NCBI GenBank assembly: GCA_001824215.1
Contig: MHWS01000003.1
Location: 1 to 41,561 of the forward strand
DNA: 41,561 nt
From: Candidatus Zambryskibacteria bacterium RIFCSPLOWO2_12_FULL_39_16
GTDB lineage: Bacteria > Patescibacteriota > Minisyncoccia > Phycocordibacterales > WO2-35-19
Reading direction: 5' to 3'
Shown: piece after piece, positions 802 to 37,115 of the stretch
Layout: the number at the start of each line of letters is the position of its first letter
How positions within the stretch are numbered: the stretch's first letter is position 1
Translations under genes and position numbers: made by a program
The notes under the pieces: generated by a model
The model's database searches: none
The model's input: the letters and a program-made list of their open reading frames with translations, nothing else
Told to the model about the DNA's origin: nothing

Positions 802-820
802 AGTCCGCCTAAGGCGGATT
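802..820. repeat. Short palindrome of the TCCGCC..GGCGGA family
   Basis: AGTCCGCCT-A-AGGCGGATT. A related copy lies inside comF at 5153-5168. Confidence 0.55.
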
Positions 821-846
821 AAATTTGCCAGTGAAATAATATATTT

Positions 847-1194
847 ATGTCACGATCACTCAAAAAAGGCCCTTATGTTGACCCAAGGGTAATGAAAAAA
901 ATTGAAGGAAAAAAACCACAAGAAACTGGGGTTATTAAGACTTGGTCAAGAGCTTGTGTCATCGCTCCGGAGATGATTGGCTTCATTTTTGGCGTCCACA
1001 ACGGCCGAGATCATATTGAAGTTTTCGTTACCGAAGATATGGTTGGTCACAAATTGGGAGAGTTTTCACTTACTCGCAAATTTATAAAACACGGAGGCAA
1101 AATACAGAAAGAGCTTGAAGCTAAGAAAAAAGAAGATGAAATAATGGCAGCTAAGGGAGCTAAAGAGGCGACAACAGGGGCAGTCAAGAAATAA
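847..1194 (+). CDS. rpsS: 30S ribosomal protein S19
   Basis: [25 protein letters not shown] motifs, plus a charged C-terminal extension. Confidence 0.98.
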
Positions 1195-1204
1195 TTTTAG
1201 TATC

Positions 1205-1579
1205 ATGAATGAAATAACCGCACAACTAAATGATTACAGACAATCACCAAGAAAGGTAAGGGTGGTGGCTGACACTATAAAGGGTAAATCGGTTGTTGAC
1301 GCCAAAAATAGATTGGATTTTATAACCAAACGAGCCACCGGTCCTTTGAATAAACTTTTGAGTTCAGCCATTGCCAACGCCAAAAACTCCGGAGCAAATG
1401 TAGAAAATCTTTGGATTAAGTCCATCACTGTCAATGCAGGTCAAATATTGCACAGACGCAGACCTGTTTCCCGCGGGTCATCCCACCCTATCAACAAGCG
1501 CACTTCCCATATTAAAATAGTTTTGGTGGAGAAATTAAAAGAAGCAAAGAAGGAAAAAAGTAAAGATAAAAATAAATAA
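1205..1579 (+). CDS. rplV: 50S ribosomal protein L22
   Basis: RQSPRKVRVV, SAIANA, KRTSHI motifs and gene order. Confidence 0.97.
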   Translation: MNEITAQLNDYRQSPRKVRVVADTIKGKSVVDAKNRLDFITKRATGPLNKLLSSAIANAKNSGANVENLWIKSITVNAGQILHRRRPVSRGSSHPINKRTSHIKIVLVEKLKEAKKEKSKDKNK

Positions 1580-1583
1580 AATC

Positions 1584-2258
1584 ATGACCCATACCGTACA
1601 TCCATATGCACATAGGCTTGGTATCATCCGCGACTGGAAGTCGCGTTGGTTTAGCGTCAAACCCAAATACAAAGAAAATTTGAGAGGTGATGTTTTGATT
1701 ATGGAATATCTTAAAAAGCGCTTGAAAGGATGCTTCGTTAATTCCACCGAAATTGAAAGAAGCGCTAAAACTTTCAGGATTATCATTGAAACTTCTCGTC
1801 CTGGCTTTATTATAGGCCGAAGTGGTGAGGGGATGATCAAACTTCGAGGAGATATTATTGCTTTCATGAAGAAGCATGATTTGAGCACCAAGGAAGAATT
1901 AAAAATAGATGTAAAAGAAGTAAAATCACCGGAATCAAGCGCTATGATAGCTGCTCAAATGGTGGCCGAAGGACTTGAAAAGAGGATGCCTTTCAGAAGG
2001 GTGACGAAAACTATGGTTGAAAAAGCTTTTGCCAACCGTGATGTAAAAGGTGTCAAAATAACAATTTCCGGCATTATGGGAGGCTCCAATATGGCTAGGA
2101 TTGAGACCAAAAAAGTGGGCCGTATTCCGCTACAGACTTTGAGAGCCGATATTGATTACGCTTTTTATGAAGCTCTTTTGCCGCTTGGAAAAATCGGTAT
2201 AAAGGTCTGGATTTATAAAGGGGATATATTTAATAAAGATAAGAGTGTTAAGCCCTAA
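1584..2258 (+). CDS. rpsC: 30S ribosomal protein S3
   Basis: RLGIIRDWKSRWF, RPGFIIG, GRIPLQTLRADIDY, GIKVWI. Confidence 0.98.
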   Translation: MTHTVHPYAHRLGIIRDWKSRWFSVKPKYKENLRGDVLIMEYLKKRLKGCFVNSTEIERSAKTFRIIIETSRPGFIIGRSGEGMIKLRGDIIAFMKKHDLSTKEELKIDVKEVKSPESSAMIAAQMVAEGLEKRMPFRRVTKTMVEKAFANRDVKGVKITISGIMGGSNMARIETKKVGRIPLQTLRADIDYAFYEALLPLGKIGIKVWIYKGDIFNKDKSVKP

Positions 2259-2267
2259 TTTAATACC

Positions 2268-2687: not shown

Positions 2688-2694
2688 TAAAAGC

Positions 2695-2723
2695 GTCGCA
2701 CTCCAAAGGACGTATCGTGCGAC
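2695..2723. repeat. Small Y-shaped palindromic element in the rplP-rpmC spacer
   Basis: GTCGCAC...GTGCGAC enclosing a TCC-AAA-GGA mini-hairpin. Confidence 0.5.
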
Positions 2724-2741
2724 ATAATTACGCTAAATTAA

Positions 2742-2924
2742 ATGAAAAAAGAATTATCAAAAAAGAGCCAAGTCGATTTGATGAGAGAGCTAGATGAAAA
2801 GCGTCTTTCTTTGCGAGATATCCGGTTTGGCACCGCCGGAAGTAAAAGTAAAAATGTCAAAGAACAAAAAACGATAAAGAAAGATATCGCCAGAATAAAG
2901 ACAGTATTAAGTATTAAGAAATAA
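2742..2924 (+). CDS. rpmC: 50S ribosomal protein L29
   Basis: IKKDIARIKTVL motif, size and gene order. Confidence 0.95.
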   Translation: MKKELSKKSQVDLMRELDEKRLSLRDIRFGTAGSKSKNVKEQKTIKKDIARIKTVLSIKK

Positions 2925-2929
2925 ATATT

Positions 2930-3193: not shown

Positions 3194-3567
3194 TTCAACC
3201 AAGATCAATAGTAAAAGTAGCCGATAATTCAGGAGCCAAAATAGGCCGAGTCTTTAAGGTATTGGGCAGTTCCAAAAAAAGATACGCTAGAATCGGCGAA
3301 TTGGTTATTTTTTCCGTTCAGAAAGCTGAACCTCGCAAAGAAATTAAGAAAAAAGCGGTACTTTTGGGTTTGGTAGTCCGCCAAAAAGCACCGCTTAAAA
3401 GAAAGGATGGTTCCTATATCCGTTTTGATGAAAATGCGGTTATTGTGGTGGAGCAAAAAAAGGGTGAGATCTTGCCTAAAGCCGGCAGAATATTTGGTCC
3501 TATTCCAAGAGAAATCGCCGAAGCCGGACATCAGGCAATCGTTTCCTTGGCACCCGAAATAATATAA
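3190..3567 (+). CDS. rplN: 50S ribosomal protein L14
   Basis: MIQ, VADNSGA, RFDENA, RIFGPI, SLAPEI. Confidence 0.98.
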   Translation: MIQPRSIVKVADNSGAKIGRVFKVLGSSKKRYARIGELVIFSVQKAEPRKEIKKKAVLLGLVVRQKAPLKRKDGSYIRFDENAVIVVEQKKGEILPKAGRIFGPIPREIAEAGHQAIVSLAPEII

Positions 3568-3610
3568 CCTCACCCCCTCCCCCTCTCCTAGATACAGGAG
3601 AGGGGGAGGG
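3568..3610. repeat. CCTCACCCC-type REP-like palindrome
   Basis: CCTCAC leader plus perfect 15 bp stem CCCTCCCCCTCTCCT/AGGAGAGGGGGAGGG with a 6 nt loop. Sister copy inside uvrB. Confidence 0.85.
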
Positions 3611-3630
3611 AAAGAAAAACAAACAAAAAC

Positions 3631-3849
3631 ATGAAAATAAAAAAAGGAGACAAAGTAAAAATAATAACAGGCAAAGACAAGGGCAAAACCGGTGCTGTTA
3701 TAAAATCATTCCCAAAAGATTTTGCTGTATTGGTGGAGGGTATAAATAAAAAGAAAGTACATCAAAAACCAAGAAAAGGCGGAGAAAAAGGTAAAATAAT
3801 AGAACAAGCGGCACCGGTGCATGTCTCAAATGTCCAAAAAATAAAATAA
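3631..3849 (+). CDS. rplX: 50S ribosomal protein L24 (short form)
   Basis: KIKKGDKVKIITGKDKGK KOW motif, VEGIN, APVHVSNV. Ends at 72 aa. Confidence 0.97.
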   Translation: MKIKKGDKVKIITGKDKGKTGAVIKSFPKDFAVLVEGINKKKVHQKPRKGGEKGKIIEQAAPVHVSNVQKIK

Positions 3850-3850: not shown

Positions 3851-4387
3851 ATGAAATTAATGAAAGAAAAAACAAAAGAAATCTTCAAAGAACTCAAAGG
3901 AAAATTGGGATTGAAAAATATTATGCAATCTCCGAAAATCGTTAAAGTAACAGTTTCTTCCGGTGTCGGCTCTTTTAACGATAAAAAGAAAATAGACGTT
4001 GTTATTGACAGACTAGCCAAGATTACCGGCCAAAAACCGGTTAAAAGAGGAGCTAAAAAATCAATCGCCACTTTTAAGTCAAGAGAAGGAGACACTGTAG
4101 GGGTGCAAGTAACCCTCCGAGGGGAGAAAATGTGGGGCTTTTTGGATAGGCTTTTTAATGTTGCTCTGCCTCGTACTAAAGACTTCAGGGGTATCCCGCC
4201 AAGCGCTATAGATGAAATGGGGAATTATACTCTTTCAATAAAAGAACACACTATATTTCCGGAAACCGCCGACGAAGACCTCAAAGATGTTTTTGGTTTT
4301 GCTGTCACCATTGTCACCAGCTTGAAAAACAAAGCTTCTACTTTTGAATTCTTCAAAGCTCTCAACCTTCCGTTCAAAAAGAGATAA
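3851..4387 (+). CDS. rplE: 50S ribosomal protein L5
   Basis: ITGQKP, AKKSIATFK, VTLRG, ALPRTKDFRG, IFPE. Confidence 0.98.
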   Translation: MKLMKEKTKEIFKELKGKLGLKNIMQSPKIVKVTVSSGVGSFNDKKKIDVVIDRLAKITGQKPVKRGAKKSIATFKSREGDTVGVQVTLRGEKMWGFLDRLFNVALPRTKDFRGIPPSAIDEMGNYTLSIKEHTIFPETADEDLKDVFGFAVTIVTSLKNKASTFEFFKALNLPFKKR

Positions 4388-4468
4388 GAGCTACACTATT
4401 GTTTCGATTACACTCTTTGCTTTTAAGTCTCTGTTGTGCTATAAAAAGTACGGAGGTTATGGTTATAT

Positions 4469-4863: not shown

Positions 4864-4905
4864 GGAAATCGTTTCCGATTTTCTGGATGGAGCGATTTTC
4901 TTTTT
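4864..4905 (+). terminator. Terminator between the convergent REC gene and comF
   Basis: GGAAATCGTTTC / GGAGCGATTTTC stem with G-U pairs, followed by TTTTT. Confidence 0.55.
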
Positions 4906-5581
4906 AATGTGCGATGAAGAGGCCGATGACGCGCTTACAGCCGGCAGATAAGAGGGCTCGACGGGCTTCGGTGAAGGAGGCACCAGTCGTATAGACATCA
5001 TCTATTACTATGACTATACGACCCTGAGTTTGCCCTCGGGTGGCCTCCATTGAGTCTTTTACGTTTTCTGTCCTTTTTTCTCTACTCAAAGTCGTTTGTC
5101 TTTCGGTTTCTCTCACTTTTTTTAAAGTATTATAGGAAACTTCTATGCTCTCTCCGTCAGCCGGCGGACCCAATTTTATTATTTCTCTGCATAATTCTTC
5201 GCATTGGTTAAAACTCCTGTTTCTCAATTCTTTTTTGCTCATAGGCATTGGCACAAGAAGAGGTAAGGCACCGTGAAAAAGAGCGATTTCAGAAGAGATA
5301 TCCAATATTTCTTCATACAAATAAATGGCGATTCTCTTTCTTAAACTGGCATTATTTTTATATTTGATTGATTTGACCATGAGCCGGACGATTTTGTTTT
5401 GATAATCAAACAGGACAAAAATATCCTTCATATAGACGGGAGATTTTGGCAAAAGGTCTCGCATTGTACTTGCCGGAAAGTCCAAAAGCTTTTGGATTTT
5501 TATATCTTCCGGCACCAAAATGTCAGTAACGGCTTCTATAAGTTTTTTTGTCCAGTTTACAAATGACTTTATAATAAGCAT
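4904..5581 (-). CDS. comF: ComF family phosphoribosyltransferase-like competence protein
   Basis: IKYK, LVPMP, RSFNQ, VIDDVYTTGAS PRT motif. Divergent from pilM. Confidence 0.9.
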   Translation of the reverse strand: MLIIKSFVNWTKKLIEAVTDILVPEDIKIQKLLDFPASTMRDLLPKSPVYMKDIFVLFDYQNKIVRLMVKSIKYKNNASLRKRIAIYLYEEILDISSEIALFHGALPLLVPMPMSKKELRNRSFNQCEELCREIIKLGPPADGESIEVSYNTLKKVRETERQTTLSREKRTENVKDSMEATRGQTQGRIVIVIDDVYTTGASFTEARRALLSAGCKRVIGLFIAH

Positions 5582-12724: not shown

Positions 12725-12764
12725 AATAATAATACTAATACCCAGCATGATTTTGCTAAATCAT

Positions 12765-24493: not shown

Positions 24494-24530
24494 ATAGATT
24501 TTGAGGGATAGTGTGGTAGATTTAGCTATC

Positions 24531-26774
24531 ATGAAATTCAAGATTAAAAGCGGTTTTAAGCCGGCTGGCGACCAGCCGCAAGCAATAGAAAAGCTGGTGG
24601 AAGGCTTAAAAAAAGGTTTGCGTCACCAGACCCTTTTGGGTGTAACTGGCTCAGGTAAGACATTTACAGTAGCAAATGTTATAAATGAAATCCAAAAACC
24701 GACTCTTGTTATCGCTCACAACAAAACTCTGGCTGCTCAGTTGGCTCAGGAATACAGAGAGTTTTTTCCTGAGAACGCTGTGCATTATTTTGTTTCTTAC
24801 TACGACTATTATCAACCGGAAGCATATATGCCGATTTCTGACACTTATATAGAGAAAGAGGCAATGATAAACGAAGAAATAGATCGGTTACGCCATGCTT
24901 CTACCCAAGCCCTTCTGACACGTAAGGATGTTATTATTGTGGCCTCGGTTTCCTGTATTTATGGATTAGGTTCTCCGATAGAATATGAAAAAGTGAATCT
25001 GAAAATTGTAAAAGGAGATAAAATATCTCGGACAGAATTTGTTCGCAGCTTAATTGGTATACATTTTGAACGTACTACCGCAGACCTTTCTTCTGGCCAA
25101 TTTAGGGCGGTCGGCAACACAGTGGAAATAATGCCAGTGTCTGAAAAAGTAATTTACAGAATTGAAATCGATGACGGAATAATAAAAGATATTTTAAAAA
25201 TAGACGCTATTACACGGACCATTTTGGAAAAAATAGAAGCTTTTTTCCTTTTCCCGGCAAAACATTTCATATCCACCAAAGAACAAAATGAAAGAGCTTT
25301 TAAAACAATCAAAACCGAACTGGCGGAGCGCTTAAAACAGCTTGAAAAAGAAGGAAAGCTTTTGGAAGCAGAACGTCTGAAACGTCGCACCAGTTATGAC
25401 TTGGCTCTTATCCGAGAAATGGGCTATTGCAACGGCATTGAAAATTACTCACGCCATTTCTCCGGCAAAAAATCAGGTGAAGCTCCCGATACCTTACTTT
25501 CGTATTTTTCTTCACCGGAAATCAGGGAAAAATTTAGTCCGCTTCACCCTGTCCGCACCAGCGGACGGGACCCTCACGGATCTAAATTTTTCCCTGATTT
25601 CCTTACTATCATTGACGAATCTCACGTCACCGTGCCACAAATTGGTGCAATGTATTCGGGAGATGCATCACGCAAACAATCACTAGTTGATTATGGATTT
25701 CGTCTACCTTCAGCCAAAGATAACAGACCGTTAAAATTTAAGGAATTTGAAGAGAGGGTCGGGCAGGTGATTTATACAAGTGCCACACCGAGCAATTATG
25801 AAAAGGAGCACAGTGAGCAGATAGTGGAACAAGTGATACGACCGACGGGCTTAGTTGACCCGGAAGTTCTGGTGCGCTCAATTACAGAAAGAAAAACCTC
25901 ACCCCCAACCCCTCTCCTTGCAAAGGAGAGGGGAGAAAAAAATAGAATTCCTGAGAACTCGAAGAAACCTTCTCGAGAGCAACTTTCGGAGCGCGACTGG
26001 CACGAGAAGGAGGGGATTTTTCAGCAGAAAAATACCCCGTTTGCTCGAGAGAACGGTTTTTTGGGTTCTTATTCGGGACAAATCGCTGATTTTATTTCCG
26101 AAGCAGAAAAAAGTATAAAAAAAGGAGGCAGAGTTATTGCAACCACTCTTACCAAAAAAATGGCGGAGGATTTGAGCGAGTACTTGAAAGAAAAAGGGAT
26201 TAAAGCTGAGTATTTGCATAGCGGCATAAAAACAATTGAAAGGATTGAAATTTTGACTCGGCTAAGGAAAGGAGAATTCGATTGCATAGTCGGAGTAAAT
26301 CTCCTTCGGGAAGGTTTAGATTTACCGGAAGTGACACTTATAGGAATTTTGGATGCAGACAAAGAAGGCTTTTTGCGTTCGGATACCTCGCTTATCCAAA
26401 TCATCGGCCGAGCGGCCCGAAATGTGGACGGCAAAGTTATTTTGTATGCCGATGTTATGACAGGCTCAATGGAGAGAGCCATAGATGAGACAAATCGTCG
26501 CCGGGAAAAACAAATCATTTATAATAAAAAGCATAACATCACTCCTAAAACAATCATAAAGAAAATCCAGGATATCACCGACCAGTTGCAATCCAAACAC
26601 CAAAAAACAGTCAAGGAACTTTTAACTTTTGACATAAAGACCGAAAAAAATATCAAAGCTCTGATTAAATACAAAGAGAAGCAGCTGAATTCTGCAGCGA
26701 AAATATTGGATTTTGAAACAGCGGCTCTTTTGCGAGATGAGATAAAAGAATTGGAAAAAATAAGAAAAGAGTGA
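24531..26774 (+). CDS. uvrB: Excinuclease ABC subunit B, with in-frame structured inserts
   Basis: PAGDQP, GVTGSGKT, YYDYYQPEAY, DESH, NLLREGLDLPEV, IGRAARN, C-terminal UVR domain. Confidence 0.98.
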   Translation: MKFKIKSGFKPAGDQPQAIEKLVEGLKKGLRHQTLLGVTGSGKTFTVANVINEIQKPTLVIAHNKTLAAQLAQEYREFFPENAVHYFVSYYDYYQPEAYMPISDTYIEKEAMINEEIDRLRHASTQALLTRKDVIIVASVSCIYGLGSPIEYEKVNLKIVKGDKISRTEFVRSLIGIHFERTTADLSSGQFRAVGNTVEIMPVSEKVIYRIEIDDGIIKDILKIDAITRTILEKIEAFFLFPAKHFISTKEQNERAFKTIKTELAERLKQLEKEGKLLEAERLKRRTSYDLALIREMGYCNGIENYSRHFSGKKSGEAPDTLLSYFSSPEIREKFSPLHPVRTSGRDPHGSKFFPDFLTIIDESHVTVPQIGAMYSGDASRKQSLVDYGFRLPSAKDNRPLKFKEFEERVGQVIYTSATPSNYEKEHSEQIVEQVIRPTGLVDPEVLVRSITERKTSPPTPLLAKERGEKNRIPENSKKPSREQLSERDWHEKEGIFQQKNTPFARENGFLGSYSGQIADFISEAEKSIKKGGRVIATTLTKKMAEDLSEYLKEKGIKAEYLHSGIKTIERIEILTRLRKGEFDCIVGVNLLREGLDLPEVTLIGILDADKEGFLRSDTSLIQIIGRAARNVDGKVILYADVMTGSMERAIDETNRRREKQIIYNKKHNITPKTIIKKIQDITDQLQSKHQKTVKELLTFDIKTEKNIKALIKYKEKQLNSAAKILDFETAALLRDEIKELEKIRKE
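25517..25602. repeat. 86 bp hairpin element in frame in uvrB
   Basis: Perfect 21 bp IR GGAAATCAGGGAAAAATTTAG / CTAAATTTTTCCCTGATTTCC, with inner GTCCGC-ACCA-GCGGAC. Confidence 0.9.
25897..25933. repeat. CCTCACCCC-type palindrome in frame in uvrB
   Basis: CCTCACCCCCAA-CCCCTCTCCTT-GCA-AAGGAGAGGGG. Same family as 3568-3610. Confidence 0.88.
25949..26078. repeat. About 130 bp nested hairpin element (AGCA loop) in frame in uvrB
   Basis: Imperfect IR of about 30 bp (GAGAACTCGAAGAAACC.. / ..GGTTTTTTGGGTTCTT), with inner ATTTTTC-AGCA-GAAAAAT. Confidence 0.8.
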
Positions 26775-26840
26775 TATCATACTGAATGCAATGATTTATA
26801 TACACCCTATTGGGCAAACCTTGGGTGAATTTCTGTGTTT

Positions 26841-29462
26841 ATGATAAAAAAAGAAGAAAAAATAGTAGTCAAAGGGGCGAGGACTCACAATCTAAAGAAT
26901 ATTACGGTTGAGATGCCCCGAAACAAAATGATTGTTTTTACAGGACTTTCCGGCTCGGGCAAGTCTTCTTTGGCGTTTGACACTATTTTTGCCGAAGGCC
27001 AAAGGCGATATGTTGAGTCGCTTTCATCCTATGCTCGCCAGTTTCTCAGGCAAATGCAAAAGCCCGATGTTGATGAAATCACGGGGCTTTCGCCTGCTAT
27101 TTCTATAGACCAAAAATCCCGTTCCAACAACCCTCGCTCAACGGTTGCCACCATAACCGAAATTTATGACTACCTCCGCATTTTGTACGCTCGAGTGGGG
27201 CATCCCCACTGTCTGGTATGCGGCGACGAAATCAAAAAACTTTCAAACGAAGAAATAAAAAATTTTGTTTTGGAAAGGATTTCCAAAATAAAAATAAATA
27301 GTGGAAAAAATTCCCAAAAAATACCATTACCAATTTACGTGGAAATTTTTGCTCCGGTGGTGCGTGGCAGAAAAGGGGAGTATTACCAACTGCTTTACGA
27401 TTTGCTAGGCAAGGGGTATTCGCATGTACTGATAGACGGTAAAAAGAAAGCTTTGCGTGAACAAATCATATTGTCAAAAAATAAAAGACACAACATTGAT
27501 ATCTTGGTTGATAGCATCAGCATGCTTGATTTCAGTAATGATACCAAAAGCGCCGAAGAAAGATTGTCGGAAGATTTAGAAAAAGCTTTAGCTGAGTCGG
27601 ATGGTTTGGTAAAAATTATTTTTAATGATACCGCGAACCCGCCTTCGCGAAGCTTCGGCGAGGCAAGGGAATTTTTTATGTCCAGCAAACTATCTTGTCC
27701 CAAAGATGGATATTCATATCCGGAAGTGGAACCACGGCTTTTTTCTTTTAACTCGCCATATGGGGCTTGCCCGGAATGCAACGGTTTGGGTACTAGGCAT
27801 TTTTTTGGCGATGAAGTTTGTCCCGTGTGTTTAGGCAAGAGGCTGCGTCCAGAAGCTCTTCATGTATTTATTGGGAAAAAGAATATTGTTGAATTGACGG
27901 CGATGTCTATAAAAAACTCCTACGATTTTTTTGCTGAACTTAAGCTTACCGAAAGAGAAAAAAATATTTCAAAAGTGATAATGAAAGAAATAGAATCGAG
28001 GCTAGAGTTTATGATAGACGTAGGCATCGAATATTTGTCGCTTGACCGTAGGGCGCATACGCTCTCCGGTGGCGAGGCTCAGCGTATCCGCCTTGCAAGC
28101 CAGCTTGGCTCAGGACTGGTCGGTGCTTTGTATGTTTTGGATGAGCCGACCATTGGGCTTCATTCTCGCGACAATGACCGCTTGGTAAAAACACTTCTTT
28201 CCCTTAGAGATCTTGGCAATACTATAATTGTAGTGGAGCATGATGAAGATACTATTTTTTCGTCCGATTATATTGTTGATATCGGTCCTAGAGCTGGGAT
28301 TCATGGAGGTGAAGTGATAGTTTCCGGATATTTGGATGATTTACTGACGGCAAAGCAGAATAAATCCGGATCTGTAACCTTGGATTATCTGCGCGGAGAC
28401 AAAGTTGTTCCGATTCCGGAAAAAAGAAGGGAAAGTTCAAAAGGTGAACTTCAAATAAGCGGAGGCAAAATTTTTAATATCAAAAATATGAATGTAAGTA
28501 TTCCGCTTGGAAAATTTGTAGCGGTAACGGGTGTTTCCGGCTCAGGTAAATCTTCTTTTGTCTATGAAATTTTACATAAAAATCTGCAAGCCCGCTTTGA
28601 ACGCAAATACCGTTCGGCGCAAGTTTTTAACTGCACATCTTTTATTGGCACCGAATATCTGGGTCGCTCTATTTTAATAGACCAGTCTCCGATCGGTCGC
28701 ACTCCGCGGTCAAATCCAGCCACTTACACCGGAGCTTGGACATTTATACGTGATTTGTTTGCCGAGACTTCCGAGACGCGGGCTCGCGGCTGGAAAGCCA
28801 ACAGGTTTTCTTTCAATGTAAAAGGAGGTAGATGCGAGACTTGCAGTGGTAATGGCGAAATAGAAGTGGAAATGCATTTTTTACCTACGGTTTATGTGCC
28901 TTGCGATGTTTGTAGGGGCAAAAGATTTATGAAAGAAACTTTGGAAGTAAAATACAAGCATAAAAATATTTATGAAGTGCTGACTATGACGGTAGAGGAA
29001 TCTTTGAAATTTTTTGAAGACATACCCGCTATTTACGACAGGCTTAAATCTCTCGATGATGTTGGTTTGGGGTATCTTGAGCTTGGCCAGTCTGCCACTA
29101 CTCTTTCCGGCGGTGAAGCTCAAAGAGTAAAGATTTCCTCCGAGCTTTACAGACCTCATCTGCAAAAGACTATTTATCTTCTTGACGAGCCTACCATCGG
29201 CTTGCATTACGAGGACGTCAAAAAATTGATTGAGATTTTGCAAAAATTGGTAAATAAAGGCAACACGGTTGTAGTCATAGAGCACAATATGGATATTATA
29301 AAATCCTGCGATTATGTTTTGGATATTGGTCCCGAAGGAGGGGATGCCGGCGGAAATCTAATAGCAAAAGGAACGCCCGAAGAAATAGCCAATAATGAAA
29401 AAAGCTATACCGGAAAATATTTGAAAAAATCATTGAAGCAATACAGGGCACATACAAGATGA
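26841..29462 (+). CDS. uvrA: Excinuclease ABC subunit A
   Basis: [24 protein letters not shown], two LSGGEAQR signatures, DEPTIGLH, Zn fingers. Confidence 0.98.
27638..27667. repeat. CCTTCGC..GCTTCGG family element in frame in uvrA
   Basis: CCCGCC-TTC-GC-GAA-GC-TTC-GGCGAGGCAAG, translated as [10 protein letters not shown]. Confidence 0.7.
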
Positions 29463-30856
29463 AAAAAGAAGATATTAAGAAAGTAATATCAAAATTACCT
29501 GATACACCGGGGGTGTATAGATTCTTGCGTAAAAATAAGATTTTATATATAGGCAAAGCGACTTCGCTTAGAGATAGAGTCAGAAGTTATTTTAATGCTG
29601 GTATTGTAACTGTTCGTAGTCCTCTTATTTCCAAGATGCTTTCAAAATTTGACGATATTTCATTCCAGAAGACGGATTCGGTTTTGGAGGCTCTGGTTTT
29701 GGAAGCCAACTTAATCAAAAAATATCAGCCGACCGCCAATATAAAAGAAAAAGACAACCGCAGCTTTAATTATATCGTTATTACTAAAGAAGACTTTCCG
29801 AGAGTGCTTGTGATGAGAGAAAGGGAACTAGAGAAATTATTTGAGCTGTCTTCCCTCGAAAACCCTCGGAAGGAGCGACGGCGACGGACGGAGAAAATTT
29901 TTAGCAAAAAATTTTTGTGGTTTACGAGGGATGCGGTGAAAAATAATTTTGCTCAAGATGCCTCAAAGAATTTTTCAATTGCTCAAACATTCGGACCATT
30001 TCCAAACGGAAGCCAACTTAAAGAAGCAGTGAAAATTGTCCGTAAAATGTTCCCATTTAGAGATAAATGTTTGCCATTGCAAGGTAGGCCTTGTTTTAAC
30101 CGTCAAATCGGGCTTTGCCCGGGTGTTTGCACTGGTGAGATAGACAAAGAAGATTATGCCAAAATCATCAAAAATATAGTTTTATTTTTTGAAGGCAATA
30201 AGAAAAAACTGATAAAAAATTTGGAAAAACAGATGAAAGATTTTGCTAAAACTAGAGAATTTGAAAAAGCTCAAAAAATAAAAAAGACAATTTTTACTTT
30301 AAACCACATTCAAGATATTTCTTTACTAAAGATAGATCCGGTAGTAGATTTTGGCATCGCACTTCGTGCAGGGGCGAAGCCTAATGCCAAAATTCACTAC
30401 CGGATAGAAAGTTATGATATTGCTCATTTTTCCGGTACAAATGTGGCAGGAGTGATGATTGTAATTGAAAATGGAGAAGTTAAAAAATCTGATTACCGCA
30501 AATTTAAAATTAAAAATCACGGAATAAACGATACCAAAGCTCTTTCCGAAATTTTATCCCGTCGGCTGGCGCATTTAGAGTGGCCGAAACCAGACCTTAT
30601 CGTCGTTGACGGGGGAGCGGCTCAAAGACGGGTTATGGAAAAAGTTTTAAAAGAAAATGGAATCGATATTCCGACTGTCTCTGTTGTCAAAGATGTAAGG
30701 CATAGGCCAAAAGAAATTTTGGGTACCGCTTCGCTTAAGCTTCGCGGCACAAGCATGAATTATTCTGAACTTGAATCCTTGATACTCCTTGCCAACGCTG
30801 AGGCTCATAGATTTGCTATCGGTTTTCACAAACAACTTCGCAGAAAGTTGCCATAA
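29459..30856 (+). CDS. uvrC: Excinuclease ABC subunit C (no C-terminal HhH), with in-frame structured inserts
   Basis: LPDTPGVY..LYIGKATSLRDRVRSYF GIY-YIG domain, FGPF, IESYDIAH, PDLIVVDGG, EAHRFAI. Confidence 0.96.
   Translation: MKKEDIKKVISKLPDTPGVYRFLRKNKILYIGKATSLRDRVRSYFNAGIVTVRSPLISKMLSKFDDISFQKTDSVLEALVLEANLIKKYQPTANIKEKDNRSFNYIVITKEDFPRVLVMRERELEKLFELSSLENPRKERRRRTEKIFSKKFLWFTRDAVKNNFAQDASKNFSIAQTFGPFPNGSQLKEAVKIVRKMFPFRDKCLPLQGRPCFNRQIGLCPGVCTGEIDKEDYAKIIKNIVLFFEGNKKKLIKNLEKQMKDFAKTREFEKAQKIKKTIFTLNHIQDISLLKIDPVVDFGIALRAGAKPNAKIHYRIESYDIAHFSGTNVAGVMIVIENGEVKKSDYRKFKIKNHGINDTKALSEILSRRLAHLEWPKPDLIVVDGGAAQRRVMEKVLKENGIDIPTVSVVKDVRHRPKEILGTASLKLRGTSMNYSELESLILLANAEAHRFAIGFHKQLRRKLP
29831..29976. 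repeat. About 146 bp nested hairpin element (AGCA loop) in frame in uvrC
   Basis: Outer IR GAGAAATTATTTGAGCTGTCTT / AAGATGCCTCAAAGAATTTTTC, middle CCCTCGAAAACC / GGTTTACGAGGG, inner AAAATTTTT-AGCA-AAAAATTTT. Confidence 0.8.
30336..30405. repeat. 70 bp Y-shaped palindrome in frame in uvrC
   Basis: 22 bp IR (20/22) ATCCGGTAGTAGATTTTGGCAT / ATGCCAAAATTCACTACCGGAT enclosing GCAC-TTC-GTGC and GGC-GAA-GCC. Confidence 0.9.
30723..30750. repeat. CTTCGC..GCTTCG family element in frame in uvrC
   Basis: CCGC-TTC-GCTTAAGC-TTC-GCGG, translated as ASLKLRG. Confidence 0.7.
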
Positions 30857-30872
30857 ATGCTAAATTTTAAGT

Positions 30873-31775
30873 ATGAAGATTTTGAAAAATATCATAGCCG
30901 TTATCGTATTAGCTGGAGCAATCGGGTATTCCGGATATACTATTTATCAGAATTCTCTTGGTCCTTGCGATAAACCGTTTGAGTATAGTATCGGCAGATT
31001 TGACATCCAATTTGGTGTTTCCAGAGGAGATTTTACATCTTATATCACCGAATCCGGCTCGGTCTGGGAGAAGGTTTTAAACAGAAAAATTTTTATTTAC
31101 AATCCAGATGCCAGTTTCAAAATAAATTTGATATATGATCAAAGACAGCTCTCTACGATCCAAAAACAAAAAACCGAATTTGGCCTCTTGGCGGTAGAGG
31201 ATACTTTCAAAAAACTTGATGTTGATTTTAATTATTTTAAAAGCCAGTATGATCAGAAAATTTCTTTATACAATAAGGCCTTAGTTTTGTATCAAGACAG
31301 GAAATCTGCCTATGACGCGGAAGTGATTTTTTGGAACAATAAGGGTGGTGCACCAAAGGACAAATTCAACTCTTTGGAGGAGGAGAGACAGTATCTGAAT
31401 GCAGAAGTGCAAAGTTTGAATAGAGAAGCTTCTTCCATAAGCGCTATGGGGGATCAATTAAATTCTTTACTAAACGTGCGAAATACCAAAGCTGTTGAAT
31501 ATAATAAAATAGCTGCAGAATACAACAAAAAATTTAATGGTGGCCTTGAATTTGATCAGGCCGAATACACCGGTAAGGAAATAAATGTTTATCAATTTGG
31601 TAACAAAAGAGATTTGGTTCTGGCTCTGACTCATGAACTCGGTCACGCTCTCGATATGAATCATGTGGAAAATCCAAAATCAATAATGTACTACATCACC
31701 GGAATTAATGCAGAAACAGCTCTTACTCCATCAGCTGAAGATTTAGTAGAATTGAATAGGGTATGCAAAATGTGA
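30873..31775 (+). CDS. Matrixin/M10-like metzincin protease with a coiled-coil insert
   Basis: N-terminal TM helix, long coiled coil, HELGHALDMNH and SIMY Met-turn. Confidence 0.88.
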   Translation: MKILKNIIAVIVLAGAIGYSGYTIYQNSLGPCDKPFEYSIGRFDIQFGVSRGDFTSYITESGSVWEKVLNRKIFIYNPDASFKINLIYDQRQLSTIQKQKTEFGLLAVEDTFKKLDVDFNYFKSQYDQKISLYNKALVLYQDRKSAYDAEVIFWNNKGGAPKDKFNSLEEERQYLNAEVQSLNREASSISAMGDQLNSLLNVRNTKAVEYNKIAAEYNKKFNGGLEFDQAEYTGKEINVYQFGNKRDLVLALTHELGHALDMNHVENPKSIMYYITGINAETALTPSAEDLVELNRVCKM

Positions 31776-31792
31776 TAGTATTTTTGAAGTAA

Positions 31793-31864
31793 GCTGGGGT
31801 AGTTCAGTGGCAGAACGCCGTCTTGGTAAGACGGAGGTCGAGAGTCCGATTCTCTCTCCCAGCT
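31793..31864 (+). tRNA. tRNA-Thr(GGT)
   Basis: GCTGGGG/TCCCAGC acceptor stem, CCGTC-TTGGTAA-GACGG anticodon arm, GAGAG-TCCGATT-CTCTC T arm. Confidence 0.93.
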
Positions 31865-31959
31865 CAATTATATTTGGCATTTATTTGTTGGTTTATTAAA
31901 TATAACTGCGGACTATGTTATAAATTTACTTTAGTACGCAGATTGGTTATACTTAAAGC

Positions 31960-32415
31960 ATGTCTAACCCCAAAAAACCAAGAAAAAATTGCCCAGTTTG
32001 CGGAAAAGAACCTTACCGTTCCTACTATAAATATTGTAGTAACGCATGTCAGCAAAAATACCAATCCAGCATTTATGTAGAGAAATGGAAAAAAGACGAA
32101 TTGAGCGGTCTTCAATCTTCAGGTATTGTTACGACATACGTGAAGAGATATCTTCGTGAAAAATATGGAGACAAATGTTGTTTGTGCGGCTGGTCAAAGA
32201 TAAACACAAAATCGAGCGTTGTCCCACTAGTTGCCGACCATATAGATGGCAATTGGAGAAATAATAAAGAAAGTAATCTGCGTTTGATTTGTCCCAATTG
32301 CGATTCTCTCAACCCTACTTATTCTGGATTGAATAGGGGAAATGGTAGAGGGAATAGAGTTATAAGTAAGAGAGCGAAAGAGGGTCGTTTATTTGTTACA
32401 AAAAAGCCAAAGTAG
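31960..32415 (+). CDS. HNH endonuclease with an N-terminal Zn finger
   Basis: CPVC..YCSNAC, CCLC, ADHIDGNWRNNKESNLRLICPNC. Confidence 0.9.
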   Translation: MSNPKKPRKNCPVCGKEPYRSYYKYCSNACQQKYQSSIYVEKWKKDELSGLQSSGIVTTYVKRYLREKYGDKCCLCGWSKINTKSSVVPLVADHIDGNWRNNKESNLRLICPNCDSLNPTYSGLNRGNGRGNRVISKRAKEGRLFVTKKPK

Positions 32416-32479
32416 TTCAGTGGCAGAACACTGCTTTCGTAAAGCAGGAACGTGAGTCCGATTCTCACCTTTGGCTCCA
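32406..32479 (+). tRNA. tRNA-Thr(CGT) with encoded CCA
   Basis: GCCAAAG/CTTTGGC acceptor stem, CTGCT-TTCGTAA-AGCAG anticodon arm, GTGAG-TCCGATT-CTCAC T arm, TCCA end. Confidence 0.93.
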
Positions 32480-32485
32480 AAATTT

Positions 32486-33397
32486 ATGGACAAGCAAAAA
32501 ACAGAGCAAAAAATAAAGGAATTGGAAGAGGCGATGATAGAGCCTGATTTTTGGAATAATAAAGATAGAGCCCAGGCTACCATAAAAGAAATCCAAAAAT
32601 TAAAAGATAATTTAGAGGGGGTAGGGCAGTATGACAAAGGAGATGCCGTAATGACTATTTTTTCTGGCGCCGGAGGAGACGATGCCGAAGATTTTTCGGC
32701 CATGCTTTTGCGCATGTATTTTAAATATTTTGAAAAGAAAAAATGGAGCTATTCCGTTTTACATGAAAATAAAAACGACCACGGTGGATACAGGAACATA
32801 ACTGTAGAGATTACCAACCCAACCTTCGCCAAGGCTACGGCGGGTTTCGGTCCTTATGGGACCTTAAAAAATGAATCGGGAGTGCATCGATTGGTCAGGA
32901 TTTCTCCTTTTAATGCAAATCAAAAAAGACACACAAGTTTTTCAATGGTGGAAGTTATTCCTAAGTTTGAGAAACAAAATGAAAACGATATAGAGTTGAA
33001 AGATGATGATTTGAAAGTAGAACTTTCGCGCTCTTCTGGCCCTGGCGGACAAAATGTAAATAAAAGAGAGACAGCGGTTCGTATCGTCCATATTCCAACA
33101 AATCTTTCAGCTCAAGCAGATGGCGAAAGAAGCCAGGCCCAGAATAAAGAAAAAGCCTTGGCCATTTTGAAAGGCAAAATATACAAAGCTTTGGAAGAAA
33201 AAAGAATATCAAAAGAAAAGGGCATGTATATAAGCAAAACCACTGAAATTGAATGGGGTAACCAGATTCGCTCTTATGTCTTGCACCCGTATAAAATGGT
33301 CAAAGACCGCCGTACCGGGGTAGAAACCAGTAATGTGGAAGCTGTATTGGAACAAGGTGAATTAGATGAGTTTATAGAAGCGGAGAAAAGTTTGTAA
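32486..33397 (+). CDS. prfB: Peptide chain release factor 2, shortened domain I
   Basis: PDFW, ESGVHRLVRISPF (SPF), SSGPGGQNVNK (GGQ), WGNQIRSYVLHPY. Confidence 0.95.
   Translation: MDKQKTEQKIKELEEAMIEPDFWNNKDRAQATIKEIQKLKDNLEGVGQYDKGDAVMTIFSGAGGDDAEDFSAMLLRMYFKYFEKKKWSYSVLHENKNDHGGYRNITVEITNPTFAKATAGFGPYGTLKNESGVHRLVRISPFNANQKRHTSFSMVEVIPKFEKQNENDIELKDDDLKVELSRSSGPGGQNVNKRETAVRIVHIPTNLSAQADGERSQAQNKEKALAILKGKIYKALEEKRISKEKGMYISKTTEIEWGNQIRSYVLHPYKMVKDRRTGVETSNVEAVLEQGELDEFIEAEKSL
32816..32846. repeat. CCTTCGCC..GGCTACGG family element in frame in prfB
   Basis: AACCCAACC-TTC-GCC-AA-GGC-TAC-GGCGGGTT, translated as NPTFAKATAG. Confidence 0.7.
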
Positions 33398-33425
33398 AAA
33401 AAATTAATGAGGTTATAATGAGAAG

Positions 33426-34106
33426 GTGATAGTTTTTGATAATGTCTCAAAAAAATATAACGATAATTATGTCGCTTTGGATAAGGTTTCTTTTGTTGTG
33501 AATCCTAATGAATTTGTCTCTATTGTGGGGCCAAGTGGCGCTGGTAAAACCACTCTTTTGCGGATGCTTTTGGCTGAAGAGAAGCCAACTGAAGGTAAGG
33601 TGTTTTTGCACGATACTGATATAAATACTCTTTCTGGTGAAGATATAAATTTCGTTAGAAGGAAAATAGGAGCTGTTTTTCAGGATTTTAGGCTTCTGCC
33701 GCAGAAAAATGTCTATGAAAATATAGCCTTTGCCATGGAAGCTGCCGGCCGGCCGGACGAGGAGATAGAATCCGATGTGCCCCATGTCCTTGAATTGGTA
33801 GATTTGGCTTCAAAAATATGGAATTTTCCAAGCACACTTTCTGGCGGTGAAAAGCAAAGAGTGGCTATCGCTAGAGCGATCGTCAATCAACCTGATATAA
33901 TTATCGCAGATGAGCCGACTGGTAATCTTGACCCAATCAATACTTACGATATTGTCCAAATTTTAAAAAAAATAAATGATCTTGGAACAACCGTGATCCT
34001 TACCACTCACAATAAAGGGGTGATAGATTCAATAGGTAGACGGGTTATTACCATGCAGGAAGGCAAAGTGGTAAGAGATGATCCTGCGGGCAAGTATATT
34101 TTATAA
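33426..34106 (+). CDS. ftsE: Cell division ATP-binding protein FtsE
   Basis: GPSGAGKTT, RRKIGAVFQDFRLL, LSGGEKQRVAIARA, ADEPTGNLD. Upstream of ftsX. Confidence 0.95.
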   Translation: MIVFDNVSKKYNDNYVALDKVSFVVNPNEFVSIVGPSGAGKTTLLRMLLAEEKPTEGKVFLHDTDINTLSGEDINFVRRKIGAVFQDFRLLPQKNVYENIAFAMEAAGRPDEEIESDVPHVLELVDLASKIWNFPSTLSGGEKQRVAIARAIVNQPDIIIADEPTGNLDPINTYDIVQILKKINDLGTTVILTTHNKGVIDSIGRRVITMQEGKVVRDDPAGKYIL

Positions 34107-35047: not shown

Positions 35048-35057
35048 TATGTTAGGA

Positions 35058-35165
35058 ATGAATCCCGTTAAAGTTTTACATATATGTAAGGTGGTAATAG
35101 CGTTATTGTGCAGATAATCATATTATTTAGTTTAATTAATCAATCAAAAACTCTAACGGGATGAA
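35058..35165. mobile_element. MITE-like element with CCCGTTA/TAACGGG ends at the pyrG start codon
   Basis: IR ATCCCGTTAAAGTTTT (35062-35077) / AAAACTCTAACGGGAT (35147-35162), 15/16 match. ATGAA direct repeat at both ends. Confidence 0.7.
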
Positions 35166-36810
35166 GAAAAACCACAAATATATTTTTGTAGTAGGAGGTG
35201 TTATGTCGGGAGTCGGGAAAGGGATAGCTTCATCGTCAATCGGCAAAATTCTTCAAAGCAAAGGTTTCAAAGTCAACCCTATAAAGGTTGACCCTTATTT
35301 AAACGTAGATGCTGGCAATATGAATCCGATAGAGCACGGCGAAGTGTTTGTGCTGGATTCGGGGCTTGAGACTGATCAGGATATGGGCAACTATGAGCGT
35401 TTTTTGGAGATGAATCTCAATAGCGAGGATTATATGACCTCTGGCAGTGTTTATAAGCATGTTATAGAAAGAGAGCGCAATTTAGGCTATCGCGGCAAAT
35501 GTGTTGAAGCTATACCTCATATTACCGAAGAGATTTTAAGGCGCATAAAAAAAGCGGCTGATGAGCACCAGTCTGATATTTCTCTCATTGAGATAGGAGG
35601 GACGATAGGTGATTATCAAAATATTCTTTTTATTGAAGCGGCAAGAACTCTCAAAATAAAACATCCTCAGGATGTCATTTTTATTATGGTAAGTTACTTG
35701 CCTATACCGGGGTCGCTTGGTGAAATGAAAACACGCCCAACCCAGAACGCAGTTCGTCAACTCAACTCTTATGGTGTTCAACCCGATATAATCATCGCCA
35801 GAGGCGCTCAGTCTCTTGATTATAAACGCAAAGAAAAGATAGCCATGGCTTGCGCTATTGCTCCGGAGAATGTCATTTCGGCACCGGATATTGCAAGTAT
35901 TTATGATGTACCTATTAATTTTGAAAAAGATAAAATCAGCAGCATTATACTTAAAATTTTTCACCTTCGGTCAAAAACAAACGGCAATTCTCTGAAATAT
36001 TGGAAAGATTTCGTGCATGAAAGAGCTCAAGCTAAAAAAGAATTGCAAATCGCTGTGGTTGGAAAATATTTTGATACTGGTGATTTTGTCTTGTCCGACG
36101 CTTATGTTTCTGTCATTGAAGCTATTAAATTTTCATCTGCTTGGAAAGGGGCGCGAACTAATCTTACGTGGATAAATTCAAAAGAATATGAAACAGACCC
36201 TAAAAAAATTTCCGAATTAAAAGATTATGATGGCATTATTGTGCCAGGAGGATTTGGCGAGAGTGGGGTAGAAGGGGTAATCATGGCCGTAGAATACGCC
36301 AGAGTTAACAAAATACCTTACTTAGGTCTCTGCTACGGTATGCAGCTTGCGGTTATTGAATTTGCCAGAAATGTCATCGGTTGGAAAGATGCACACACAT
36401 CTGAAATAAATCCAAAATCATCCCATGTAGTCATAGATATCATGCCGGAGCAGAAAAAACTTTTGGAGGAGGGAAGATACGGAGCGACGATGCGACTTGG
36501 GGCATACCCTGCTATTTTGAAAAAGGGGACAATAGCTTACGGAGCATATGGTGAAAAAAATATTTCCGAAAGGCACAGGCATCGCTATGAAGTTAACCCT
36601 GAGTATATCGCTGACGTAGAAAATGCGGGGATGGTTTTCTCCGGCACTTCGCCCGACAGAAGGCTTATGGAAATCGCTGAACTTCCCAAAAACATTCACC
36701 CGTTTTTCCTTGGCACTCAATTTCATCCAGAATTTAAAGCTCGTCCTCTCCATCCGCACCCTCTTTTTACTGCCTTTATTGACGCTTGTTTGAAGAATAG
36801 ACAATCATAA
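35161..36810 (+). CDS. pyrG: CTP synthase
   Basis: GGVMSGVGKG, KVDPYLNVD, HGEVFV, PGGFG, GLCYGMQ, ERHRHRYE, QFHPEF. Confidence 0.98.
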   Translation: MKKNHKYIFVVGGVMSGVGKGIASSSIGKILQSKGFKVNPIKVDPYLNVDAGNMNPIEHGEVFVLDSGLETDQDMGNYERFLEMNLNSEDYMTSGSVYKHVIERERNLGYRGKCVEAIPHITEEILRRIKKAADEHQSDISLIEIGGTIGDYQNILFIEAARTLKIKHPQDVIFIMVSYLPIPGSLGEMKTRPTQNAVRQLNSYGVQPDIIIARGAQSLDYKRKEKIAMACAIAPENVISAPDIASIYDVPINFEKDKISSIILKIFHLRSKTNGNSLKYWKDFVHERAQAKKELQIAVVGKYFDTGDFVLSDAYVSVIEAIKFSSAWKGARTNLTWINSKEYETDPKKISELKDYDGIIVPGGFGESGVEGVIMAVEYARVNKIPYLGLCYGMQLAVIEFARNVIGWKDAHTSEINPKSSHVVIDIMPEQKKLLEEGRYGATMRLGAYPAILKKGTIAYGAYGEKNISERHRHRYEVNPEYIADVENAGMVFSGTSPDRRLMEIAELPKNIHPFFLGTQFHPEFKARPLHPHPLFTAFIDACLKNRQS

Positions 36811-36822
36811 ATAATTATTAAC

Positions 36823-37065
36823 TTATTTATTAAACAAATTTAATTTCCTCTTTCTTTTCCAACTTTTTATCTCAGATTCTCTCCCCCGAGCTTTTTTAAG
36901 TGTTTTGAAAGTTTCTTGGTATTTCAACACCACTGGTCTGCGTATCTTTGTATAATGAGCTCCTGATTTCGAAGTATTGTGTTGTTTCAATCTTTTTATC
37001 AGATTATTAGTGCAACCTATATAGAGAGACCTATCGGCACATTCTAAAATGTAAGTGATATACAT
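36823..37065 (-). CDS. Small GIY-YIG nuclease (UPF0213/YhbQ-like)
   Basis: YILECADRSLYIGCTNNLIKRLKQHN..GAHYTK.RRPV..RESEIK. Confidence 0.92.
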   Translation of the reverse strand: MYITYILECADRSLYIGCTNNLIKRLKQHNTSKSGAHYTKIRRPVVLKYQETFKTLKKARGRESEIKSWKRKRKLNLFNK

Positions 37066-37084
37066 AAAACTTTATTCTTCAGTA

Positions 37085-37115
37085 CCTACGCTCTGCTTCG
37101 GTCTGAGACGAAGTT
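37085..37115. repeat. CCTACGC..GCTTCGG family element upstream of the GIY-YIG gene
   Basis: CCTACGC-TCT-GCTTCGG followed by TCTGAGACGAAGT. Same layout as the uvrA and prfB inserts. Confidence 0.5.

Follow-up and report, generated by a model that had tools for sequence, protein, structure and literature searches.

According to an excerpt of PMC10969869 that cites Ogata et al. 2000, the reduced genome of Rickettsia contains several families of small palindromic repeats, the Rickettsia palindromic elements (RPEs), many of which lie in frame in housekeeping open reading frames (ORFs) at places predicted to be compatible with the protein fold. In the current study, comparable elements were analysed in a stretch of 41,561 nucleotides (MHWS01000003.1, contig C3, referred to as the window) from the genome of Candidatus Zambryskibacteria bacterium RIFCSPLOWO2_12_FULL_39_16 (G000), a member of the Patescibacteria. 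Hairpin-forming DNA units of the families designated FamA to FamG were found here; elements are read through in frame in uvrB (three), uvrC (three), uvrA (one) and prfB (one), five of them in families with further copies in the genome or in relatives. The genome comprises 539,271 bases in 26 contigs (C1, C2 and so on) with a GC content of 36-42% per contig and 38% overall, and its completeness was estimated at 94.6%. The sequencing runs that contain it are labelled as groundwater or soil metagenome.

The elements resemble RPEs in being multi-copy palindromic repeats located in frame in unrelated ORFs of a reduced genome, with a mobiliser that is not known, and the likeness is used as a working resemblance only. 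RPEs are about 150 bp long and occur in Rickettsia, whereas the units described here measure 30-125 nt and occur in Patescibacteria. Moreover, each RPE family encodes a conserved peptide, in contrast to the present elements (FamF uses three frames and both strands, and FamG lies on opposite strands at the same uvrB site). To our knowledge, copy-specific arms and the capture of host codons, both seen in this study, have not been described for RPEs.

A second group of described systems comprises REP (repetitive extragenic palindromic) sequences and the REPINs, the latter being laid out as inverted doublets around a spacer (excerpt of PMC3116915). FamA shares with them a GC-rich hairpin with a conserved 5' tag, occurrence as singlets and as four inverted doublets around a spacer, and compensatory changes that keep the hairpins intact; in addition, the genome possesses a gene for a HUH Y1 protein resembling REP-associated tyrosine transposases (RAYTs), with TnpA-REP (4er8) as its closest structure in fold. 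Both REPs and REPINs are extragenic, and REPs reach hundreds of copies per genome, whereas FamA has about 10 copies and 4 of its 11 loci (uvrB, RNase R, TruB and TrmD) lie wholly inside ORFs. The REP tag GTAG or CGTC was not visible in the FamA sequences, and unlike RAYT genes, the RAYT-like genes found here are not flanked by cognate repeats.

Miniature inverted-repeat transposable elements, known as MITEs, are likewise short, non-autonomous and multi-copy. Conserved terminal inverted repeats were, however, present in the long form of FamA only, and the repeats flanking FamB, FamD and FamG are copy-specific, not family-conserved. No parent insertion sequence with matching ends was found in the genome, and, with no empty site alignable at the nucleotide level, no direct target-site duplication was demonstrable. 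Palindrome-associated derivatives of IS200/IS605 are also short, non-autonomous and multi-copy. The AT-rich mitochondrial genomes of yeast contain mobile, GC-rich palindromes, the GC clusters, and some of these lie in frame in a coding gene; they are organellar and unrelated in sequence. On balance, RPEs appear to be the closest system and FamA looks REP- or REPIN-like, but the elements probably belong to neither group, given that they have no conserved peptide, are not extragenic and are not adjacent to a RAYT gene. In the titles and abstracts that were searched, elements of the in-frame palindromic, REP, RAYT or MITE kind were nowhere connected with Patescibacteria or the candidate phyla radiation, and no literature text with at least two of the three FamA motifs was found.

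Three elements inserted in uvrB

A preliminary description of the window had claimed that structured elements are inserted in frame in housekeeping genes, and had quoted odd peptides as their products. These peptides are indeed encoded at 25902-25934, 27639-27668, 32819-32845 and 30728-30748, in uvrB, uvrA, prfB and uvrC, respectively, and the DNA beneath them was predicted to form hairpins. The three elements proposed for uvrB were identified as FamD, FamA and FamG (Table 1). The comparison drew on 31 related genomes, on 16 from the genus and on a sample of 201 from the class; alignment of orthologs delimited the inserts and revealed presence/absence among them, as the preliminary description had anticipated.

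The DNA containing the uvrB copy of FamD (25505-25615) was predicted to fold with an energy of -55.0 kcal/mol. Three further copies are present in the genome, on contigs C1, C18 and C8, each with its own perfect 20-nt arms. Those on C1 and C18 have common arms apart from compensated changes, and their flanks are unrelated; therefore, arms can travel with the core. The encoded insert (residues 338-363) was absent in all 20 UvrB orthologs. Its right arm overlaps the native P-D-F codons just before the DESH motif, and in two relatives a FamA-like element in reverse orientation was found at this same point, directly before DESH.

FamG occupies the same uvrB site in the relatives G015, G009 and G018, on the opposite strand, with 91% identity over 85-91 nt to the window copy. 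Outside the inserts, uvrB was only 66.6-75.6% identical to these relatives, and third codon positions 38.7-48.7%; for G018, the inverted FamG was 91% identical against 66.6% for the gene and 38.7% for its third codon positions. As the identity of the element exceeds that of the host gene, these sequence comparisons suggest that FamG is mobile independently of uvrB. In total, 11 FamG copies were found in five genomes, and eight of these had an arm score of at least 9 (arms were scored by local alignment of the flanks; in the null distribution the 99th percentile was 8 and the highest score 14). In G015 and G018 the arm reaches the native Y-P codons of the uvrB YPGQI motif. A consensus fold was built from the window copy and 14 of 15 metagenome contigs, one being dropped because the match lay at the contig end (10 of the 15 rows were distinct). 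In this fold 20 of 37 pairs were changed on both sides, and the apical hairpin was invariant.

The second block of added residues in UvrB (approximately 462-524) was highly variable among the 20 orthologs: nine had nothing, one had 7 residues, and ten had differing inserts of 35-57 residues. Residues 338-363 and 462-524 remained unaligned to the solved UvrB 9gy7_E. Compared with solved UvrB structures, each block is purely added sequence, at a junction whose length in the reference is zero. An AlphaFold model of UvrB based on 12 sequences was poor (mean pLDDT 60.6, pTM 0.48) and was not relied on; its coil of lowest confidence (453-513) coincided with the second block, and the first insert lay within a broader region of low confidence (289-377).

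Elements in uvrC, uvrA and prfB

Alignment of UvrC with 21 orthologs revealed three stretches that are private or nearly private to this genome, corresponding to the three elements claimed previously. Two of them are a FamE-like and a FamF unit, while the third proved to be a unique local palindrome. The FamE-like insert has diverged, but in its 21-nt hairpin it is identical to FamE copies on C14 and C19; residues 133-170 are occupied in at most 6-9 of the 21 orthologs, and there by other families. No private arms were detected for FamE in the local-alignment arm test (scores 3-7). At the palindrome, residues 297-306 were present in 0-2 of the 21 orthologs, and no second copy was found in the genome. 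Both this palindrome (30336-30405) and that of a pilin gene (14728-14790) are local inverted duplications of host codons, not dispersed elements.

In contigs of two other sequencing runs (X6 and X8), position 30403 is joined back to 30338 with seven other letters between, a join suggesting that the community also harbours this palindrome in a variant or flipped state.

FamF is a GC-rich unit of 30 nt with a consensus, judged by eye, of roughly CCCCACTTCGCTAAAGCTTCGCGGGGCAAG. It is too short for BLAST and was therefore found by pattern search and counted apart from the BLAST clusters; the pattern had 11 matches in the genome, compared with a mean of 1.0 in 20 second-order Markov shuffles. The single units proposed for uvrA and prfB both belong to this family, and units related to that of uvrC are present on C2, C13, C15 and C18 as well as in loci of relatives. 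The uvrA, uvrC and prfB sites are read in three different frames (SFGEAR, SLKLRG and FAKATAG), and genome-wide all frames and both strands are used, so that FamF is an element at the DNA level. A motif acting at the peptide level was rejected for FamF and FamG, since several frames and strands are in use. Among 26 RF2 orthologs, 5-6 carry an insert at the FamF site and the remainder read straight through, and among 21 UvrA orthologs other genomes hold inserts at the FamF linker and at further sites. In uvrA, the FamF unit fills this variable linker with no net gain in length over most genus orthologs.

Sister copies and distribution of the families

The motifs are repeated genome-wide, as had been predicted. 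An all-against-all BLAST of the genome yielded 71 clusters, the largest with 24, 11, 9, 7, 4 and 4 members, and a short-word BLAST of the window against the genome detected sister copies for 2695-2749, 3565-3607, 25517-25602, 25892-25942 and 29894-29914. Elsewhere in the genome, the same families lie inside genes for RNase R, TrmD, TruB, Dus, MnmA, RseP, SMC, DnaE, RecJ and TopA. Dispersed copies are 85-94% identical with unrelated flanks, and the cores recur in other genera, metagenomes and phages. Thus, the elements are multi-copy, lie in frame in real genes, vary in presence, family and orientation, and are better conserved than their host genes.

At least three designs were distinguished. 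FamA is REP- or REPIN-like, FamF is the 30-nt unit, and FamB, FamD and FamG consist of an asymmetric conserved core between inverted arms that are complementary within a copy and different between copies. Arm scores were 11-17 for all eight FamB copies and 20-21 for all four FamD copies. Where these families lie in genes, one arm consists of native coding sequence in its outer part (P-D-F for FamD, Y-P for FamG). In these copies and in the single-copy palindromes of uvrC and the pilin leader, the native arm was always on the 3' side of the gene, in about six cases that are not independent of one another.

Of the 30 loci of the larger families, only 10 are entirely within ORFs, where the coding fraction is 0.908 (p = 2e-14), pointing to selection against genic copies of these families. 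FamF and similar units of about 30 nt were inside ORFs at 15 of 16 loci, as the coding density of 0.908 predicts.

Turnover at one site was most evident in TruB, where 11 orthologs of a single genus carry the long or short form of FamA, a FamB-like element, two other palindromes, or nothing; at least five different families or none were counted at this site. The insertion point in RNase R showed the same hot-spot turnover among orthologs.

FamA and its occurrence in phages

FamA consists of the tag AACCTCACCCC, three variable bases and a hairpin of CCCCTCTCC, a loop and GGAGAGGGG. It was found six times as a singlet of about 48 nt and four times as a doublet of 121-129 nt, the doublets being two inverted units around an AT-rich spacer. 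The long form has terminal inverted repeats of 11-12 nt, in which AACCTCACCCC is paired with GGGGATGAGGTT, and subterminal hairpins. The exact pattern had 13 matches in the genome and was present in three of the 201 class genomes (13, 12 and 1 matches), while the reversed control gave 0 in all of them. A congener of the genome with 12 matches had none.

The FamA pattern was also found in at least 120 viral contigs of IMG/VR. Among 80 viral loci there were 95 matches, 66 of them with a complete hairpin, at a locus GC content of 0.37-0.68. One contig of 7283 nt (L312) contains five units, two of which (1894-1935 and 4395-4436) lie in frame in a Mu-F-like protein and in a large terminase, there in the linker between domains; placement was by position, and Pfam confirmed both host genes. 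FamA is therefore at least one family that is common to bacteria and phages, its insertion in frame extends to the latter, and phages with FamA could move the element from host to host. The GenBank phage collection contained no FamA match at E <= 0.01 with the low-complexity filter on, and the exact patterns of FamG, FamD and FamF had 0 matches in the viral contigs.

The sole tyrosine recombinase of the genome, which looks Xer-like (C5:40300-41342), lies 77 nt upstream of a FamA short unit.

A candidate mobiliser

The preliminary description had suggested looking for small nucleases that co-occur with the elements. A HUH Y1 homolog is present, namely the RAYT-like protein of 222 aa encoded on the minus strand at C22:43559-44227, which matched Y1_Tnp with 37.4 bits (Pfam cut-off 23). 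The best NCBIfam match, REP_Tyr_transpos, scored 35.9, below the cut-off of 80. The HUH motif (H90-F-H92) and the catalytic Y150 were invariant in 28 homologs. A sequence-only PDB search was not significant (E about 1), but the predicted model (pLDDT 84.1) was closest in fold to the REP-associated transposase 4er8 on its REP hairpin (E = 2.7e-4), followed by IS200/IS605 transposases. The family occurs in all 16 genus genomes with 1-10 matches each and in 24 of the 31 relatives; at E <= 1e-45 it was found in 35 of the 201 class genomes, including all three that are positive for FamA.

No TnpB, DDE_Tnp_1, rve or IS110 family member was found in the genome (94.6% complete), and the RAYT-like gene is the only transposase-like gene detected. 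It is adjacent to no element; the hairpins adjoining it occur nowhere else in the genome, and an arrangement of the REPtron type was looked for and not found. The HUH enzyme is, by analogy and on circumstantial grounds, the most likely mobiliser; no physical link to the elements was found.

Genus genomes of 0.4-0.8 Mb carry a heavy load of these RAYT-like genes of approximately 220-240 aa, without classical flanking REPs.

Origin of the elements

The results are best explained, with a probability of about 0.65, by several unrelated families of small non-autonomous hairpin-forming mobile elements, for which the RAYT-like HUH Y1 family is the likeliest mobiliser. The elements would spread within the lineage and to and from relatives, FamA also to and from phages, and would land in spacers as well as in genes. 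Genic copies would persist where the frame is kept without stops, in permissive loops or inter-domain linkers. Such inserts are probably translated as extra peptide, because about ten elements in the window keep the frame without stop codons, which removal from RNA or protein would not need. After insertion, self-complementarity would be maintained and the element may grow outward by inverted copying of the host flank, possibly through snap-back or template-switch synthesis or hairpin transfer; subsequent decay would leave hypervariable GC-rich linkers. The earlier proposal of a multi-family system of small non-autonomous elements tolerated in proteins is thus supported, with the restriction that not every hairpin cited for it is a family member.

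Several observations weigh against this explanation. No pair of empty and filled sites could be aligned at the nucleotide level, and neither a target-site duplication nor the exact ends were delimited. Compared with random windows, the elements have only a modest excess of stop-free frames, and the in-gene counts rest on a crude, home-made greedy ORF caller. The strong covariation of stems is also compatible with a functional structured RNA. With respect to the mobiliser, 32 of the 35 class genomes positive for RAYT-like genes have no FamA, and the co-occurrence of FamA with the RAYT subtype (2/2, p = 0.028) is a weak test on kin that are not independent. Furthermore, no FamA tag or hairpin was found within 1.5 kb of RAYT-like genes at the 8 loci scanned (the ORF was recognised in 7), and a single RAYT-like gene in the genome stands against at least six element families.

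FamB, FamD and FamG might represent a new kind of mobile hairpin, in which one arm is rebuilt from the other at each move or repair, through snap-back synthesis or hairpin transfer of the parvovirus type following a HUH nick. Such a process would account for four observations together: arms that are perfect within a copy yet copy-specific, the entry of host codons into the arms with the target duplicated in inverted and not in direct form, the flip of the core at a fixed site, and the repeated rewriting of surface loops of essential enzymes in these bacteria and, for FamA, in their phages; we put this forward as a tentative and rather unlikely model. Somewhat less likely still, FamB, FamD, FamG and FamC could be functional structured RNAs, either cis-regulatory or small, with genic copies being incidental or regulating the host mRNA, for instance as RNase III or attenuation sites. 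The changes on both sides of 20 of the 37 FamG consensus pairs with an invariant apical hairpin, the covariation of both FamC stems, the position of 17 of the 20 FamC copies 0-2 nt before an ATG, and the perfect arms of intergenic copies would all agree with an RNA. On the other hand, orientation relative to the host gene varies among the copies and is opposite at the same uvrB site, families substitute for each other at one loop, and presence/absence is seen among close relatives. Arms of Watson-Crick perfection (20-21 of 20-21 in FamD) that include host codons look mechanistic, and no Rfam family was matched at threshold; the scan gave only tRNAs at the gathering score and, at E <= 1, sub-threshold matches of miRNA-type hairpins.

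It is improbable that no transposition is involved and that the palindromes arose locally by replication template switching or fold-back repair duplicating neighbouring DNA in inverted form. In the uvrC and pilin palindromes one arm is native and the other its inverted copy, and the outer arms of FamD and FamG enter native PDF and YP codons, yet dispersed copies with unrelated flanks and the same cores in other genera, metagenomes and phages are not explained in this way. The sharply defined interruption points in conserved proteins recall intervening sequences of the intron or intein type, removed from RNA or protein. This seems very improbable, as the inserts (27-192 nt) are too short for inteins or self-splicing introns, occur in spacers also, and are in frame and stop-free in the window; a known ribozyme or intron was ruled out by Rfam. 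An artefact of assembly or binning, with repeats misjoined into genes of a metagenome-assembled genome, has the least credit. Many contigs of other runs break at the FamA hairpin (about 25925), where depth is 320-446 compared with 13-17 nearby, but a depth 20-30 times that of the flanks and contig breaks are expected because FamA is a community-wide repeat. Independent contigs rule out an artefact: those of runs X6, X7 and X8 span FamD, the FamF units of uvrA and prfB and all three uvrC elements with 0 differences, and zero-difference stretches were obtained at 25403-25925, 27615-28766, 28739-32454 and 32752-33500 in three runs that are not flagged as a possible source. Orthologs of other genomes also carry related inserts at the same sites, and the reading frames stay open.

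The presence of these hairpin elements has consequences beyond this locus. Patescibacteria are usually called streamlined, with little room for selfish DNA, yet this 0.54-Mb genome tolerates at least six hairpin families. Many elements lie in essential or near-essential genes, and selfish DNA could reshape such proteins in a minimal genome; the elements are a source of rapid variation in protein loops and reveal, as a natural experiment, which sites are permissive in UvrA, UvrB, UvrC, RF2, RNase R and TruB. For annotation and phylogenomics, they are a warning that marker genes can contain GC-rich junk peptides. The system may offer a tractable route to the role of RAYT-like HUH enzymes in genomes without classical REPs, and the combination of a core with private arms and captured host codons may hint at an undescribed mechanism of insertion or repair.

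Other features of the window

The elements, single hairpins and host genes are listed in Table 1. Further genes recognised by Pfam were ftsE, ftsX, gatC, gatA, ligA, pyrG and a type IV pilus cluster.

Table 1. Positions of elements, palindromes and element-bearing genes in the window (nt).
Feature	Position	Strand	Remarks
Hairpin in spacer	802-820		Single-copy, GC; not a family member
FamC	2695-2749	+	Leader-type, two hairpins, ends 1 nt before ATG
FamA short unit in spacer	3565-3612	+	Upstream of L5 gene (Pfam, 3851-4387); 90% identity to 7 other copies in the genome
comF-like gene	4904-5581	-	Pfam
PPAD private insert in comF-like gene	5156-5167	-	12 nt, GC-rich; in 0/15 orthologs
FamC, second hairpin alone	12746-12772	+	Directly before ATG of pilin gene (N_methyl motif)
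Palindrome in pilin leader peptide	14728-14790		Unique; 27-nt arms; right arm is the native G-FTLIE cleavage motif
uvrB	24501-26774	+	757 aa; Pfam UvrB, UvrB_inter, Helicase_C; three elements inside
FamD	25517-25602		41-nt conserved core, perfect 21-nt inverted arms; read as SPEIREKFSPLHPVRTSGRDPHGSKFFP
FamA short unit in uvrB	25892-25942	+	Tag AACCTCACCCC plus hairpin CCCCTCTCC...GGAGAGGGG; read as PPTPLLAKERG
FamG	25953-26066	-	83-nt core at 25970-26052
Hairpin in uvrB-uvrA spacer	26803-26827		Single-copy; not a family member
uvrA	26835-29462	+	875 aa; Pfam UvrA_inter, ABC_tran; 21 orthologs aligned
FamF unit in uvrA	about 27634-27669	+	Pattern match 27643-27657; peptide at 27639-27668
uvrC	29459-30856	+	465 aa; Pfam GIY-YIG, UVR, UvrC_RNaseH_dom; 21 orthologs aligned
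FamE-like insert in uvrC	29855-29968	+	Diverged; residues 133-170
Palindrome in uvrC	30336-30405		Unique; 31-nt arms, 81% complementary; right arm enters native YRIESYD codons
FamF unit in uvrC	about 30722-30754	+	Read as ASLKLRG; peptide at 30728-30748
prfB (RF2-type)	32471-33397	+	308 aa; Pfam PCRF, RF-1
FamF unit in prfB	about 32814-32852	+	Read in another frame as PTFAKATAG; peptide at 32819-32845
Weak hairpin	37085-37115		Single-copy; not a family member

Part of the preliminary description did not hold for these features. Sister copies in spacers had been claimed at 802, 2695, 3568, 26803 and 37085. Only that at 3568 belongs to a family found in genes, FamA; the element at 2695 represents the separate class FamC, and for the hairpins at 802, 26803 and 37085 neither short BLAST nor a search allowing up to 3-4 mismatches found a sister in the genome; in a terminator scan they were not terminator-like. 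The two insertions proposed for comF were mostly not supported: apart from the four residues PPAD, the GC-richest stretch is the native phosphoribosyltransferase motif found in all 15 orthologs, and assignment of ORF 33426-34106 to comF was rejected, as Pfam identified it as ftsE. In gatC, the supposed insertion corresponds to two local AT-rich hairpins in a hypervariable stretch, with no gain in length over 14 orthologs and no sister copy.

FamC (approximately 55 nt) differs in placement from the families above, in that it was not found inside ORFs. It has 20 copies in the genome, 18 of them on contigs other than that of the window. The starts that follow belong to unrelated genes, with N-termini resembling L29, DnaJ, adenylate kinase, ribosome recycling factor, RNase III and pilins, among others. 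A Shine-Dalgarno sequence was not visible at FamC sites, and FamC also has no Rfam family. Its 14-nt core occurs about 20-24 times in this genome and 0-4 times in five relatives, and FamC has therefore undergone an expansion in this lineage, where it may serve as a portable cassette of the leader or promoter type.

The excision repair genes showed further peculiarities. No helix-hairpin-helix domain was reported by Pfam for uvrC. Among the 31 relatives, uvrB was undetected in 8 (4 of these at least 90% complete), uvrB and uvrC were undetected in 7-8, and with the UvrA query eight gave only weak matches, their best E values (5e-7 to 5e-9) being comparable with those of generic ABC-ATPases; about 8 appear to lack true uvrA. 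This clade seems to be losing nucleotide excision repair, and the clustering of elements in uvrA, uvrB and uvrC may result from relaxed constraint. In prfB, the sole in-frame start (TTG, 32471) is overlapped by a tRNA gene (32406-32476), and the PCRF match starts at profile position 86.

In the pilin region, insertions into leaders had been proposed. One leader does contain a palindrome (14728-14790), which is single-copy, while 12746-12772 is FamC before the ATG. The leader with the palindrome has 25 aa, compared with 7 and 11 aa in two sister pilins. A 25-nt inverted repeat with words of the AATTGAAAATTG type (14191-14215 and 15905-15929, 96% complementary) surrounds 1.7 kb with two pilin-like genes, and this segment could be invertible.

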